Source: a virus. Taken from it: 36,099 bases of DNA. The position numbers and the translations under genes were made by a program. This document shows, one piece after another, positions 32,055 through 36,037 of the stretch. Under the pieces are notes generated by a model. It ran no database searches and was not told the DNA's origin. It saw nothing but the letters and a program-made list of their open reading frames with translations. Where the stretch lies: IMG/VR virus record IMGVR_UViG_3300017643_000016; one strand, given 5' to 3'. Numbering within the stretch: the first letter of the stretch is position 1; each line of letters opens with the position of its first letter.

Positions 32055-32861
32055 ATGGATGGAATTTGCCGAATTTGCGGTCTTGAATCTTCTGGGGTCG
32101 ATTTCGATTCCTGGGTAAAGGACACCTTCACCAATTATGACCTTCTACACCCGGGGAACATCATCTGCAATGCGTGTGTGTTCTGGTTTGATCAGCGTTC
32201 TGCCCAGTTACAAAATCTAATGGGTAAAGACAAGCCGCAGAAGATGCAGAATTACAGCCATTTTGTTGTAGATGGCGAGTGGATCCCAGTGGGAAAAGGA
32301 AATAAAGCCAGAATGGCAGAATTACTGCTTGGAAAGCAATTCCCGGAACTGGCAGTAATCGCCGTAAGTGGTCAGAAGCATCTGGCTTTCAGGGCCCGCA
32401 GAAATGTATCTGGAAGAGATTGCGGATGGGTCCAGTTTGAAGAGAAATCCATCTGGGTGGAGCAGAGTTCTTTGAAAGAGATGATCTTCAATATCGAACA
32501 GCTTTACAGCGTCTTCTCAAAAGGAGAAATCGAGACTGGACACTACTACCCGTCGCGGATCATTGATTTTGGGATGGAGAGATGGAAGTTTTTCGAGGAT
32601 AAGATCAAGCCGGCAAGAAAGACGGCTTTGTTTCAATTGAGTCTATTTTTGGCACAAAGGAGTGACGATGGAACCGGAGAATTCGAAACAAGCGGAAGTG
32701 GCGACGATGCTCTCGATCTTGTGGAGGGGAATTCCCCTGGATTACAAGAGCAAATACCGGATGACGATCTGGGAGCAGTTCGAGAACGAGATCAGAGCGG
32801 CAGCATACACCAGCAAGCTGACGAAGTTCGTCAACTCAATTTCTTCGAGAATGCAGATTGA
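32055..32861 (+). CDS. csf1: Csf1-like (type IV Cas8-like large subunit) zinc-finger protein
   Basis: The N-terminus has CRICG...(30 aa)...CNAC, a CxxC/CxxC finger. It is the first gene of a Cas11, Cas7, Cas5 cluster. The ATG at 32055 is 1 nt after the int stop. The last ~65 codons overlap the next gene out of frame. Confidence 0.6.
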   Translation: MDGICRICGLESSGVDFDSWVKDTFTNYDLLHPGNIICNACVFWFDQRSAQLQNLMGKDKPQKMQNYSHFVVDGEWIPVGKGNKARMAELLLGKQFPELAVIAVSGQKHLAFRARRNVSGRDCGWVQFEEKSIWVEQSSLKEMIFNIEQLYSVFSKGEIETGHYYPSRIIDFGMERWKFFEDKIKPARKTALFQLSLFLAQRSDDGTGEFETSGSGDDALDLVEGNSPGLQEQIPDDDLGAVRERDQSGSIHQQADEVRQLNFFENAD

Positions 32862-33033
32862 AGTCGGCAGAAATGAAGAAGAACGGGCGGTATTCGAAAA
32901 GATACTGCAGACTGCAGATGATCGGACCGTTCTCAAGATGCTGAGAGAAGAAACAACCATCCTTGTATTGAAGGTCAGAGTGGATAACGAAGAAAAGCGG
33001 GCCGAGTGGAAAGCCAGAAATGAGGAAAAATAA
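32668..33033 (+). CDS. cas11: Cas11-like small subunit (121 aa, helical)
   Basis: AAGGAG (32657..32662) lies 5 nt before the ATG at 32668. The size, helical and charged composition, and position between csf1 and csf2 match the type IV-B layout. Confidence 0.55.
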   Translation: MEPENSKQAEVATMLSILWRGIPLDYKSKYRMTIWEQFENEIRAAAYTSKLTKFVNSISSRMQIEVGRNEEERAVFEKILQTADDRTVLKMLREETTILVLKVRVDNEEKRAEWKARNEEK

Positions 33034-34007
33034 TGCGCACCTATATTTTCGAAGGAATCATGACTGCCCAGACAAGCATTTCCCATATTGGGGAGACTTT
33101 CGGGATCAACGCAAAACTGCGCCGCGAAAAGATCATCCAGCCAGATGGAACGGTTGAAGAAGTGCCGATCATTTCAGGGAACGCGATTCGGGGCATCCTG
33201 CGTGATCGCGGAATGCTGCACATGCTCAAACTGTTGGGTTATGGCATCAACGAAGAGACAGGCGAGGTAAACGGTCTTAGCCTGGCAGCCTTTTACTTTT
33301 TATTCAGCGGTGGATCGCTGACGAAATCAGGGAATGCCGGCATCGACGTGGATGAAGCACGCCGATGGAGAAAACTGATCCCGCTCGTCTCAATCTTTGG
33401 GGGAGCGATGGGTAATCAGATCATGCCGGGGGCTGCGAAAATCGGCAAAGGGATCCCAATTTGCAAGGAAACAGCCCATCTGATTCCACAGAGATTCGTA
33501 ACAGGAAATGAACAATCCATTTGGGATATGTGCCAGGAAGAGGCATACACACGGAGAGACGACGAGAAAAACGAGCATTTGCGTATGCTGATCGCCCCTG
33601 AAGTACGCGGATTATTGGAAGCGGACGCTGCCTACAAGCGCGAAAAACGAGGAACGTCTGAAGAAGTCGCGGGAGAGACCGGTCAATCTCAGCAAATGCG
33701 CTATTTTGTAGAGACCCTGGCCGCCGGAACGCAGTTGTTTTTCGACGTCTCCCTGGATGATGTTAGTGACCTGGAATTCGAAGCTTTCTGCGTCACATTG
33801 GCTGAATTTGGCCGTCTGCCTTATTTGGGCGGAAAATCCAATGTCGGGCATGGCAAGGTATCTATCAAGTTCGATAACTGGATTGAGATCAACCCGCGCC
33901 TTGCCCCGGAAGGGAAAAAACTGGACTCTCCGCTCGGAACGAAATATCTGCAACATCTCAAAGAGAACGGAAACGCTATCCGGGAGATCATCAATGGACT
34001 CCAGTAA
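33033..34007 (+). CDS. csf2: Csf2 (type IV Cas7-family RAMP backbone subunit)
   Basis: ISGNAIRGILRD, FSGGSL, SIFGGAMGN and the C-terminal YLGGKSNVGHGKV glycine-rich loops are RAMP/Cas7 signatures. TAATG coupling to the upstream gene. Confidence 0.75.
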   Translation: MRTYIFEGIMTAQTSISHIGETFGINAKLRREKIIQPDGTVEEVPIISGNAIRGILRDRGMLHMLKLLGYGINEETGEVNGLSLAAFYFLFSGGSLTKSGNAGIDVDEARRWRKLIPLVSIFGGAMGNQIMPGAAKIGKGIPICKETAHLIPQRFVTGNEQSIWDMCQEEAYTRRDDEKNEHLRMLIAPEVRGLLEADAAYKREKRGTSEEVAGETGQSQQMRYFVETLAAGTQLFFDVSLDDVSDLEFEAFCVTLAEFGRLPYLGGKSNVGHGKVSIKFDNWIEINPRLAPEGKKLDSPLGTKYLQHLKENGNAIREIINGLQ

Positions 34008-34683
34008 TTTTGAAAATCTCCGGGTGCGCGCCTGGATGCAGTCACCAATTGTAAGTGATGATTGGTGCCCACTGGATGGCGCTTTGCTTTATCAATTCGT
34101 CCGCGAAGATCTGGGTTATCAGGAAGTCACGATATCAGGAGCATCCTTGTTGGAGCAGCCGAAGGGCGAGCCAATGCGCGGCGGAAGGATGCCGATTGCG
34201 GTAGTGCATGGTAAATACTGGTATTATCGATGCTCCTGGGCGGTGTTTGGTCCGTATATGGATGGTCAGGATTTTTGGAATAAACGATTCAGCGCAAGCC
34301 ATGCCGACCTGATCGATTTCAAAGGAAAACGTGGAAAAATCGATACCAGCTCTTCGATCTATAAGGCATATCGAATGCCTGTGTTTTATCGTTCTGCTTT
34401 ATGGATCGAATGGTATTTGCGCTGTGATGTTGATTGGCTGAAATCCATTCTTCCAATGGTCACTCATTTGGGAAAGAAGACCAGCCAGGGGTGGGGAAAG
34501 GTGCTCCGCTGGGAAATCAACAATGCTGAATCTGACATTAGCATCTGGAAAGGGAAAAAATTGATGCGCGGGATCCCTTTGCGGGATTGTCCAGAAGATC
34601 ATTTTGTGAATAAAGTGGGTCTTTATGGAATAAGACCCCCGTACTGGGATAAACGCAATCAAATGGAGCTGGTATTGCCGTGA
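33994..34683 (+). CDS. csf3: Csf3 (type IV Cas5-family RAMP)
   Basis: The N-terminus has PLDGALLY and the C-terminus has the glycine loop LGKKTSQGWGKV. 229 aa, overlapping csf2 by 14 nt. Confidence 0.65.
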   Translation: MDSSNFENLRVRAWMQSPIVSDDWCPLDGALLYQFVREDLGYQEVTISGASLLEQPKGEPMRGGRMPIAVVHGKYWYYRCSWAVFGPYMDGQDFWNKRFSASHADLIDFKGKRGKIDTSSSIYKAYRMPVFYRSALWIEWYLRCDVDWLKSILPMVTHLGKKTSQGWGKVLRWEINNAESDISIWKGKKLMRGIPLRDCPEDHFVNKVGLYGIRPPYWDKRNQMELVLP

Positions 34684-35297
34684 TCTCCGAAGAGGATCTG
34701 CTCGATATTGCTGACCATGCAACCAGATCGCTGATCAAACGCGTTTTGATCGGGGCGAGGATCAGTGATGCAGAGGCAGATGATATGCGTCAGGCGGCTG
34801 TTTTGAAACTGCTGTTGTATGGTCAAAAGCATGATCTGAATATCGGCATGAGGCCTTTGCTTTTCGTGATTGCCAAACATGCGGCATTTGAGTGGATTTA
34901 CTGGTGGCAGCATAATATCCGTAATTCGGCCTATTTTTGCGGAAACAGAATGGCAAACTCTGAGCAAAGGAAATCAATCCAGGTAATCAGTCTCGATGGT
35001 ATTGAGGATTCCGGTTATCAGCCGGCCGCAGAAATTCCAGATTTAGCAACAGAGCCTCTTCCGAAAGAGGTGAATGACCAACTTTATAAAATCCTGTGCG
35101 ATGAACGAAAAAAGAAAGGAATGCGCGGAACAATGGCGGCGGTAAGGGATATTCGAATCATCAATTATGTGGTCATGGGCTATAACAATACCGCCATTGC
35201 CAACGAACTGAATTCTTCTGGAAGGGATATCAGCCATTACAGGAGATCGATTCAGAAAAGGCTTTCTAATCATTTGAATAAGCGAGTTCGTTCATGA
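34680..35297 (+). CDS. Sigma-70 family (ECF-like) sigma factor-like protein
   Basis: Region-2-like segments are DAEADDMRQAAVLKLL and LLFVIAKHAAFEWIYWW. The region-4 HTH-like segment is GYNNTAIANELNSSGRDISHYRRSIQKRL. The GTG start overlaps the csf3 stop, and the stop overlaps the next ATG. Confidence 0.5.
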   Translation: MISEEDLLDIADHATRSLIKRVLIGARISDAEADDMRQAAVLKLLLYGQKHDLNIGMRPLLFVIAKHAAFEWIYWWQHNIRNSAYFCGNRMANSEQRKSIQVISLDGIEDSGYQPAAEIPDLATEPLPKEVNDQLYKILCDERKKKGMRGTMAAVRDIRIINYVVMGYNNTAIANELNSSGRDISHYRRSIQKRLSNHLNKRVRS

Positions 35298-36037
35298 TCG
35301 ACGAAAATATTTATTGGCAATACTCAAAACTGGATTCGTTCAAAAGAAAGGTCAACAACGCCGAAAGTTTGATCAATCTAGCCTTCTCTAAGGCGAGAAA
35401 TTGGTACGTTTCTACGTCTTGGGGGAAAGACAGTATTAGCCTGGTCGATATGGTAAGGAATATAAGACCGGAAATAGAAGTCGTGTTTATCGATGGTGGG
35501 ATCGAGCTATTAGAGATAGATCGTGAATCTATCGAGAGTTATGTGAAAAAAAATAAGATAAATCTTATCCATTTGAAGTGGAGTAAATTGGATTATCTTA
35601 GAGAAGAAAAGAAAAATGAAAAAGGAGATGCAAAGAAGATTCTTTATAATTCAATGTTTGCCCCGTTGAATAACTGGCTGAAAATCCGTCCAGATATCAA
35701 TGGTGTTTTTATGGGGCTGAGACGAGAAGAAAGCAAAATCCGGTATTTATCAATTGGGAAATTTGGCCCATTGCATGAATATCAGTCTGGAAGCAATAAG
35801 GGATTATGGAGATCGTTGCCTTTATTTGATTGGAAGACCATCGAGGTTGGTGCTTATGTGGTCTCTCGAGGACTGCCAATTTTAGATATCTATAAGAAGA
35901 TGGGGTTCGAAGCAAGGTCCGGTATGTTCGGATTTGGCTCTTCTCAATTCGGCAGATTCGCCTATCTGAAGCATTATTACCCGGATTTATTCAATAAATA
36001 CGCTGCTGAGTTTCCTGAAATAAGAAAGGAAATATGA
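35294..36037 (+). CDS. PAPS-reductase-fold PP-loop protein (cysH-like type IV-B accessory), cysteine-free
   Basis: The PP-loop variant is STSWGKDS (canonical SGGKDS), and GLRREESKIR matches the family's R..ES motif. The 247-aa translation contains no Cys. The gene is A/T-rich. Confidence 0.7.
   Translation: MIDENIYWQYSKLDSFKRKVNNAESLINLAFSKARNWYVSTSWGKDSISLVDMVRNIRPEIEVVFIDGGIELLEIDRESIESYVKKNKINLIHLKWSKLDYLREEKKNEKGDAKKILYNSMFAPLNNWLKIRPDINGVFMGLRREESKIRYLSIGKFGPLHEYQSGSNKGLWRSLPLFDWKTIEVGAYVVSRGLPILDIYKKMGFEARSGMFGFGSSQFGRFAYLKHYYPDLFNKYAAEFPEIRKEI

Follow-up and report, generated by a model that had tools for sequence, protein, structure and literature searches.

What an array-less CRISPR-Cas system of type IV-B does for the phage that carries it is the question raised by IMG/VR virus record IMGVR_UViG_3300017643_000016, which was analysed over its whole length of 36,099 nt (the window). 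Positions 32055–36037 of the window are an intact, selected type IV-B cassette without a CRISPR array and form the last operon of the phage. Its six genes follow the integrase gene int in the order csf1, cas11, csf2, csf3, a gene for a sigma-factor-like protein and a cysH-like gene (CasCysH). IV-B is the only CRISPR-Cas subtype that lacks an assigned function: the structure of its ribonucleoprotein (RNP) has been solved, but it has no known target or partner, and the CysH-like protein has no known role. Carriage of IV-B by phages is already known and ordinary, since plasmids are described as the main home of the subtype and prophages as an occasional one (PMC7038947), and PMC10848311 describes several lytic phages with type IV systems and an archaeal virus with IV-B. 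One more phage-borne copy leaves the question of function unchanged. The cassette is, however, a member of a large IV-B clade associated with phages, in which two previously undescribed architectural features occur, namely a Csf1 tail that is overprinted on cas11 and carries a clamp-type motif, and a variable regulator slot in front of cysH. The best overall explanation, which we regard as moderately probable as a whole, is a IV-B cassette with a role in replication-linked conflict; the tether to the sliding clamp that it includes is somewhat less probable than not.

The first-pass annotation of the window had assigned the locus to type IV-B, and this assignment stood, with PADLOC type IV profiles recognising all four Csf/Cas11 proteins. 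The open reading frames (ORFs) and peptide motifs that it had quoted were all found in place, i.e. the genes for 268, 121, 324 and 229 amino acids (aa) and the gene with a phosphoadenosine phosphosulfate (PAPS) reductase fold. The type IV Cas7 backbone protein Csf2 (324 aa; csf2 at 33033–34007, plus strand) matched Csf2_0_IV (E = 7.3e-81) and TIGR03115 (9.6e-16), with the Pfam family RAMPs at the cut-off. Among solved structures, its best match was Csf2 in the IV-B complex from Mycobacterium (7JHY; 7jhy_e, 2.3e-26), followed by chain C of PDB entries 11fs, 11hc and 11hd, deposited as 'Cas7c' (1e-17). Csf2 contained the motifs ISGNAIRGILRD at residue 47, SIFGGAMGN at residue 120 and YLGGKSNVGHGKV at residue 264. 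The type IV Cas5 protein Csf3 (229 aa; csf3 at 33994–34683, plus strand) matched Csf3_0_IV (4.2e-44), TIGR03116 (1.2e-14) and, in the precomputed annotation of an identical product, Pfam PF27782 (Csf3), and had the motif LGKKTSQGWGKV at residue 159. The similarity of these two products to Cas7 and Cas5, which had been set beforehand as the test of the assignment, was thus significant for both.

The type IV small subunit Cas11 (121 aa; cas11 at 32668–33033, plus strand) matched Cas11_1_IV (3.2e-29) over residues 13–121 of the 123-aa ORF, and its match to the Cas11 of 7JHY (7jhy_h) was weak (E = 0.046). The type IV large subunit Csf1, here in a long form of 268 aa (csf1 at 32055–32861, plus strand), matched Csf1_0_IV (1.9e-23) over residues 2–200 and TIGR03114 (1.4e-5); an alternative start at 32037 with a GGGAG Shine-Dalgarno sequence would give 274 aa. 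Csf1 contained CRIC at residues 5–8 and CNAC at residues 38–41, an N-terminal arrangement resembling a zinc finger, and both CxxC pairs were invariant or nearly so in 66 homologues. An AlphaFold2 model built on the alignment of these 66 homologues had a predicted local distance difference test score (pLDDT) above 90 over residues 1–204. When the model was compared with the PDB by Foldseek, a probability of at least 0.99 was obtained only for the type IV-A effector complexes 7xg1_A (1.00) and 8rc3_G (0.99). Searched against the PDB by sequence profile, Csf1 gave no match; only the fold comparison recognised it there. The NCBIfam models for csf1, csf2 and csf3 were the top matches of their proteins, yet under the equivalog cut-offs. 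At the level of sequence, every testable defining feature of subtype IV-B was present.

The cas11 gene started with an ATG at 32668, with AAAGGAG at 32654–32660, and its first 194 nt lay inside csf1. The earlier description of four start/stop-coupled ORFs after int was therefore right about the ORFs but not about the coupling of csf1 and cas11, which are joined by this 194-nt out-of-frame overlap, nor about the size of the operon, which has six genes. The C-terminal tail of Csf1 (residues 205–268; 32667–32858, plus strand) was read in a frame shifted one base upstream relative to that of cas11 and lay outside the Csf1 profile. The tail was predicted to be disordered (pLDDT below 50), contained the peptide GLQEQIPDDDLGAVR and was strongly acidic in the window, with 17 D/E and 3 K/R residues; across homologues, the net charge was only mildly negative. 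Because csf1 overlaps cas11 by 194 nt, cas11 was lost from public gene calls: those for the same phage (L028–L034) omitted it or kept only its last 60 codons, and only one Logan call had the 121-aa product. Automated typing of overlapped loci could miss Cas11, hiding part of the cassette.

Two forms of Csf1 were found in 38 related loci (given L numbers). In nine loci, Csf1 was short (194–204 aa) and ended at the cas11 start. In the other 29, it was long (250–282 aa) and extended 146–251 nt into cas11, which was always in the +1 frame. The Csf1 frame of L016 was anomalous and stayed open much longer. The long form was present in 116 of the 120 best database homologues, and its extra part comprised about 65 residues. 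McBride et al. reportedly found in 2020 that type I Cas11 is translated from an internal start within cas8. In both arrangements the large-subunit gene shares sequence in its 3' part with the coding region of the small subunit, but cas8 and Cas11 share one frame, whereas csf1 and cas11 differ in frame over the 146–251 nt and the tail is an overprinted, unrelated sequence. The locus provides a clear case of an out-of-frame gene overlap that is long and under selection.

Near its end, the tail carried the conserved sequence H(Q/K)QPG(E/Q)(V/I)x-Q-L-x-L-F, after which 0–24 residues remained before the stop. The strict pattern Q[LM]x[LMF][FL] occurred within the last 45 aa of 71 of the 116 long homologues, and a loose variant in 104 of them; shuffled tails gave 0.43 matches per 116. 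The commonest forms were QLDLF (20) and QLSLF (17), and the local version in the window was QLNFF (residues 260–264; 32832–32846, plus strand). A C-terminal Q-L-x-L-F is the consensus for binding to the beta sliding clamp and is also used by insertion sequence (IS) transposases (PMC4549789). In these transposases, as in Csf1, a protein of a mobile genetic element carries the motif at its C-terminus or close to it; their clamp binding was shown biochemically, whereas the case for Csf1 consists of the motif, its conservation and the predicted disorder. We tentatively propose, with somewhat less than even confidence, that the Csf complex uses this motif to attach to the sliding clamp of the host. 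In the literature that we searched, nothing tied Csf1 or type IV systems to the sliding clamp. The Tn7 protein TnsE is another mobile-element protein with a clamp-binding motif and reaches replicating DNA via the host beta clamp. Unlike TnsE and the IS transposases, the carrier of the motif here is a subunit of a CRISPR-type RNP.

A different reading accepts the same IV-B RNP with a tail that does not bind the clamp. The tail would then serve another partner (Cas11, CasCysH or a phage protein), or it would be a by-product of constraint on Cas11 (F-V/I-N-S-L/I-C) combined with tolerated read-through. It does overlie the strongly conserved N-terminal helix of Cas11, so its conservation is partly passive. 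The codon usage of cas11 points the other way. In the overlapped loci, codon pairs for the same amino acid differed in 45% of cases inside the overlap and in 66% downstream of it, compared with 63% and 61% in the nine loci without overlap. The Cas11 Val/Ile codon that gives the C of the Gln codon had C as its third base in 26 of 27 long loci (38% background), and the Cys codon that gives the T of the Phe codon was TGT in 20 of 25 loci (30% background), although the loci are phylogenetically related and such codon counts are not independent trials. Third positions that are synonymous in Cas11 were, in other words, fixed toward keeping the Q and the F of the tail. Where the genes do not overlap, Cas11 had another, more variable sequence at the motif site (F-L-x-K-I-x), and the alternative frame was full of stops. 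The codon bias, the suppressed synonymous variation and the different Cas11 of the non-overlap loci indicate dual-coding selection, by which the conservation of the tail would be more than a shadow of Cas11. That QLDLF and QLSLF are exactly the commonest variants, that the ORF always closes just past the motif and that a disordered C-terminal tail is the usual site of clamp motifs also argue against a tail without affinity for the clamp, and we consider such a tail rather unlikely.

Several further observations weigh against docking at the clamp. The QLNFF of the window is non-canonical and a weaker variant than the QL[DS]LF of the family. The strict pattern is not fully specific, as it also matched a structured helix (LFxLALFLAQ) in 13 of the 116 Csf1 bodies. 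Many IV-B systems lack any such tail, and the motif was absent from the actinobacterial plasmid systems, from Skermania phage SPI1 and from the nine loci with a short Csf1; therefore it cannot be a general IV-B mechanism. A scan for promoter and terminator consensus sequences performed no better than on shuffled sequences and was uninformative, so the transcription units were deduced from gene coupling.

A phage-encoded homologue of the clamp protein DnaN was located 1.2 kb upstream of csf1 in L024 (6577–7758), where the tail of Csf1 has RQLTLF at its end. In L019 (5245–6426), an ORF of the same size (393 aa) lay approximately 2.5 kb upstream, similar to the DnaN of L024 by size alone. In the more distant IV-B system of Rhodovastum atsumiense plasmid RHOApd (L055, 2977–3447; Csf2 28% identical), it was Cas11 and not Csf1 that ended in such a motif (EFQLELFEAA / EGAEFQLELFEAA), which looks like an independent acquisition. 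Tails of the type that binds proliferating cell nuclear antigen (PCNA), i.e. similar to the PCNA-interacting protein (PIP) box, were sought in the Cas11 of archaeal plasmid IV-B systems; two of four had an xxLxxF[VI] ending and two had nothing, which was too weak to be used. Acidic Cas11 tails with hydrophobic-aromatic ends were observed in T. nautili (DKSLSEFVGGDE) and Actinarchaeum (TSKLTDFITED) (L058, 3076–3486; L059, 2990–3385). The 3' ends of cas11 in loci with a short Csf1 (L020, L040, L046, L047) encoded a Bacteroidota-type IDEDLQF or, in others, NENLFV and SASSLF. These acidic ends may be PIP-like or similar to the tail of single-stranded DNA-binding protein (SSB), but they are inconsistent, with Natrinema and Halomontanus having none.

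The family of the cassette proved large. At E ≤ 1e-10, Csf2 had 848 homologues; identity was at least 71% among the best 120, many of them labelled Csf2 by the Joint Genome Institute (JGI). The same cassette was found on 26 IMG/VR viral contigs and on 13 contigs from metagenome-assembled genomes (MAGs). The MAG contigs were binned to Anaerolineales/Chloroflexota, which held the closest relatives, and to Bacteroidota, Acidobacteriota, Ignavibacteria and others; one of the nearest relatives was binned to a spirochaete. Homologues were also present on 75 PLSDB plasmids, mostly of Rhodococcus and Mycobacterium. Among 50,697 GenBank phages, the only Csf2 match was in Skermania phage SPI1 (orf40–44; 35.7% identity), and neither the operon nor a 25-kb portion of the genome matched any GenBank phage in DNA searches. 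The order csf1-cas11-csf2-csf3-[slot]-cysH was found where Csf2 was at least 68% identical to that of the window, and the order csf1-cas11-csf2-cysH-csf3 where it was 50–61% identical.

The IV-B system of Mycobacterium sp. JS623, from which 7JHY derives (PMC7937560), and the actinobacterial plasmid loci such as Rhodococcus jostii RHA1 pRHL3 resemble the phage cassette in having csf1, cas11, csf2, csf3 and a cysH-like gene and in lacking an array, cas6 and a helicase. They differ in that they are plasmid-borne and their Csf2 is only approximately 30–37% identical. In the actinobacterial loci inspected, cysH was divergently placed, unlike in the phage. Neither Csf1 nor Cas11 of these systems has a QLxLF tail, csf1 and cas11 do not overlap and there is no sigma gene in the operon, whereas the phage has all three features. 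Phage SPI1 has the same five-gene order as the phage studied here, with all genes annotated as hypothetical and a Csf1 without the tail. The Fuxivirus of Bathyarchaeia (PMC10848311) likewise combines a virus-borne IV-B effector with a CysH-like gene; it also has a mini-array and Cas4, neither of which is present here.

The first-pass annotation had read a role in lysogeny out of the position of the cassette next to int, and this argument turned out to be weak. No homologue of the integrase was detected in any of the 38 related loci (tblastn, E ≤ 1e-5). When the ten upstream neighbours were scanned with Pfam, they comprised DnaB, PrimPol, ParB, a DnaN homologue and unknowns, with no integrases among them; where genes downstream of the cassette were recognised (L004, L006, L025), they were packaging genes. 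Adjacency to int as a conserved feature was rejected, since the scanned neighbours in relatives were replication genes or unknowns. Judged by these gene neighbourhoods, the conserved address of the cassette is the distal end of an early/replication block, and its adjacency to int is particular to this phage.

The genome held no other recognisable part of a CRISPR-Cas system. Neither tandem nor spaced repeats, and no CRISPR array, were detected by Tandem Repeats Finder and repeat scans; no pair of 22-mers with at most three mismatches and a spacing of 40–110 existed anywhere on the circular genome, and no Rfam CRISPR-DR family matched at E ≤ 1. A Pfam scan of the other 43 ORFs, on which the absence of other cas genes mainly rests, gave no Cas1, Cas2, Cas4, Cas6, DinG or HD family. 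The families detected in these ORFs were all phage, methylase, SSB, HNH and helix-turn-helix (HTH) families, and the sole nucleases in the genome were a terminase domain and a packaging-associated HNH protein. In agreement with the initial claim, these scans place no array, cas6, helicase, adaptation gene or effector nuclease in the 35,972-bp circle.

This gap bears on the possibility that the complex loads CRISPR RNAs (crRNAs) or crRNA-like RNAs made by the host and silences competing elements or host genes without cleavage, like type IV-A. All subunits that bind crRNA are present and conserved, type IV-A interference is nuclease-free (PMC12669027), the idea has already been raised for IV-B (PMC7038947) and an archaeal virus IV-B locus has a mini-array (PMC10848311). 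The phage itself, however, has no cas6, array, solitary repeat or mini-array. In addition, the solved IV-B complex carried heterogeneous non-CRISPR RNA (PMC7937560), which it had taken up in place of co-expressed RNA (PMC8175902), and the binning of cassette hosts to several phyla speaks against reliance on one host repeat type. Use of host crRNAs is thus improbable in our view. By homology to 7JHY (PMC7937560), we infer an RNP that assembles on non-CRISPR RNA. A single copy each of Csf1 and Csf3 and several copies each of Csf2 and Cas11 would form a filament similar to Cascade or Csm, in which RNA from outside any CRISPR array is the scaffold for Csf2 and Cas11 and Csf1 and Csf3 are the caps.

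Downstream of csf3, the cassette is of a different nature. The 205-aa product at 34680–35297 (plus strand) is encoded by a gene coupled to csf3 and to cysH by GTGA and ATGA overlaps. On its own, this protein matched a GerE HTH domain just under the cut-off (5e-5) and TIGR02937 weakly over its full length (0.08). A word-indexed search found no relatives, and an exhaustive HMMER search found 65 remote homologues. A profile of 40 of these matched sigma-H 3mzy (1.6e-7) and SigL 6dv9 (4e-7) in the PDB over the full length, and among the 40, Sigma70_r2 was found in 10 and Sigma70_r4_2 in 10. A single-sequence AlphaFold2 model (pLDDT 40) was unusable. The protein is most similar to the extracytoplasmic function (ECF) or sigma-H-like group and appears to be a very divergent member of it. 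The same slot was occupied by a homologous sigma-like gene in L002, L003 and L012, by small unrelated HTH proteins in L004, L006, L009, L010 and L035 and also in L005 and L022, by a P-loop protein in L016 and by a 253-aa unclassified ORF in L008, and it was empty in seven loci. As the contents vary among relatives, the slot gene is an accessory, swappable regulator and not a core part of the system. One might speculate that the sigma-like protein drives the adjacent late operon.

The last gene, cysH-like (35294–36037, plus strand), encodes a 247-aa PP-loop protein that matched Pfam PAPS_reduct (4e-13), the PAPS reductase 1sur in the PDB (1.2e-4) and PADLOC BrxP (7e-8). The first-pass annotation had noted a PAPS-reductase-fold gene close by; the gene is indeed present, but as the last gene of the operon itself, after 34680–35297. 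The protein contains no cysteine and therefore cannot be a PAPS reductase, an argument that has been made before for the cysteine-less condition of CasCysH (PMC8175902). It has SWGKDS at residues 42–47, and both SxGKDS and GxRxxES were kept in 34 relatives. From the chemistry of the family, we infer a reaction of the adenylyl-transfer type and not sulfate reduction: CasCysH would use the ATP alpha-phosphate in such a step on a nucleic acid or a partner, with no sulfur chemistry.

DNA similarity to the closest relative, L002 (Csf2 90% identical), extended over 32111–34694 only and ended with csf3, and the sigma-like and CysH-like proteins of the two loci were only 27–29% identical. The G+C fraction of the cysH region was 0.40 (35001–36000), compared with 0.47–0.51 for 32001–35000. 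The stop in similarity at the end of csf3 and the lower G+C suggest that the regulator and cysH were exchanged as a separate module, presumably by recombination. In L014, a 513-aa radical-SAM protein (11585–13126) followed csf3 in the usual place of cysH, and no cysH was detected within 5.5 kb downstream of csf3. L021 had two tandem copies of csf3 (12107–13426 and 14296–15369), with a tyrosine integrase 0.9 kb downstream on the opposite strand.

The CysH-like protein also figures in the idea that the cassette blunts host CRISPR or restriction, either because the complex sequesters host crRNAs or small RNAs or because CasCysH modifies phage nucleic acid. CysH-like domains are part of the BREX, Dnd and Ssp DNA-modification systems, as the BrxP match recalls. 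The cassette lies in the early gene block of many phages, and in this phage two DNA methyltransferase genes lie just upstream. Yet the absence of cysteines argues against chemistry of the phosphorothioation type, a five-gene anti-CRISPR of approximately 3.4 kb would greatly exceed known Acr proteins in complexity (PMC7038947), and the clamp-type motif would be left unexplained. We regard an anti-defence role as quite improbable, slightly more so than the use of host crRNAs.

Window positions 1–127 and 35973–36099 were identical (100%) in a repeat-family search. This 127-nt repeat is an assembler overlap that marks a circular contig, so that the contig "end" is an artefact and the phage genome is a circle of 35,972 bp. 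A head-to-tail contig of approximately two genome lengths exists in public data with 317x coverage (L029/L048), and the identical Csf2 protein was found on at least 12 public contigs. The phage is a 36-kb temperate siphovirus, with genes for the large and small terminase, portal, a ClpP-type protease, a P22-like coat protein and the tape measure, and further genes for a replication initiator, two DNA methyltransferases and SSB. The claim that it is temperate was borne out, because identical copies sit integrated in tRNA-Pro(GGG). In L028 (attR), the phage sequence stopped 62 nt past the cysH stop inside tRNA-Pro(GGG) and was followed by copA-copZ-csoR-tkt; in L049 and L050 (attL), the opposite junction came after host PBP2-minCDE-rodA-gltX. 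ARAGORN called tRNA-Pro(ggg) at the junction. The circular form departed from attR at position 128 and from attL at 86. This gives an attP core of 41 nt (36059–36099, equal to 87–127) that begins 21 nt beyond the cysH stop. The final 35 nt of the core coincide with the 3' end of the host's tRNA-Pro(GGG), read on the minus strand.

The tyrosine integrase gene int (30929–32053, plus strand; Pfam Phage_integrase 7.2e-10 with a SAM-like N domain; start at 30971 in public calls) abuts or overlaps the csf1 start, and the gene order is early genes, int, csf1, cas11, csf2, csf3, sigma, cysH, attP. The cassette thus lies between int and attP and in the lysogen forms the extreme right end of the prophage, beside tRNA-Pro(GGG). 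The earlier label "terminal cargo" holds for the prophage, where the cassette lies between int and attR, but not for the linear contig, whose end is the assembly overlap. The position between int and attP distinguishes this phage from the prophage IV-B cases (PMC7038947), Fuxivirus and SPI1. By this layout, a IV-B system enters the lysogen as end-of-prophage cargo.

Such a place is a classic 'moron' position, and together with the lack of an array, nuclease and adaptation module it could suggest a decaying, non-functional CRISPR-Cas remnant hitch-hiking beside attP. All six ORFs are intact and translationally coupled, however, and their catalytic-type motifs and the glycine loops of the repeat-associated mysterious proteins (RAMPs) are conserved. 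Hundreds of homologues at 50–90% identity have the same gene order, and purifying selection acts on both frames of the overlap. The conservation data effectively refute decay, which we consider extremely unlikely.

Other features of the phage lay outside the cassette. The first gene past attP, leftmost in the prophage, encoded a 79-aa GerE/LuxR HTH protein (146–385, plus strand; Pfam 1.4e-10), so that the attachment site is flanked by two LuxR-type HTH regulators, this protein and the sigma-like one. A tRNA-Ser(TGA) gene with a long variable arm (22917–23005, plus strand) stood between the block of minus-strand genes and the early block on the plus strand; its best Rfam match was tRNA-Sec, under the gathering score. 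The two methyltransferase genes (C5-cytosine and N6/N4) adjoin each other at 25831–27856; they belong to the early block and lie upstream of SSB, int and the cassette.

For the role of the system, a function in replication-linked conflict and not in adaptive immunity is most likely. The flexible, acidic tail of Csf1 would tether the RNP to the host beta clamp, i.e. to replicating DNA. As the phage does not encode its own polymerase and its SSB is of the host type, a clamp-docked complex would sit where the host and competing elements replicate. Expressed with the early/replication genes, it would act, for example, in host takeover or in the exclusion of competing replicons. We advance, as a tentative and somewhat doubtful generalisation, that in a large, mainly phage-borne IV-B clade, overprinting of cas11 in its 5' part has given Csf1 a tail that binds the clamp, that at least one plasmid lineage has the same motif on Cas11 instead and that these RNPs work at the replisome. 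The conserved, dual-coded clamp-type motif on the large subunit points to the replication fork as the place to look. If true, the beta clamp and the replisome would be the first concrete cellular address for the enigmatic IV-B systems and would provide them with a directly testable mechanism.

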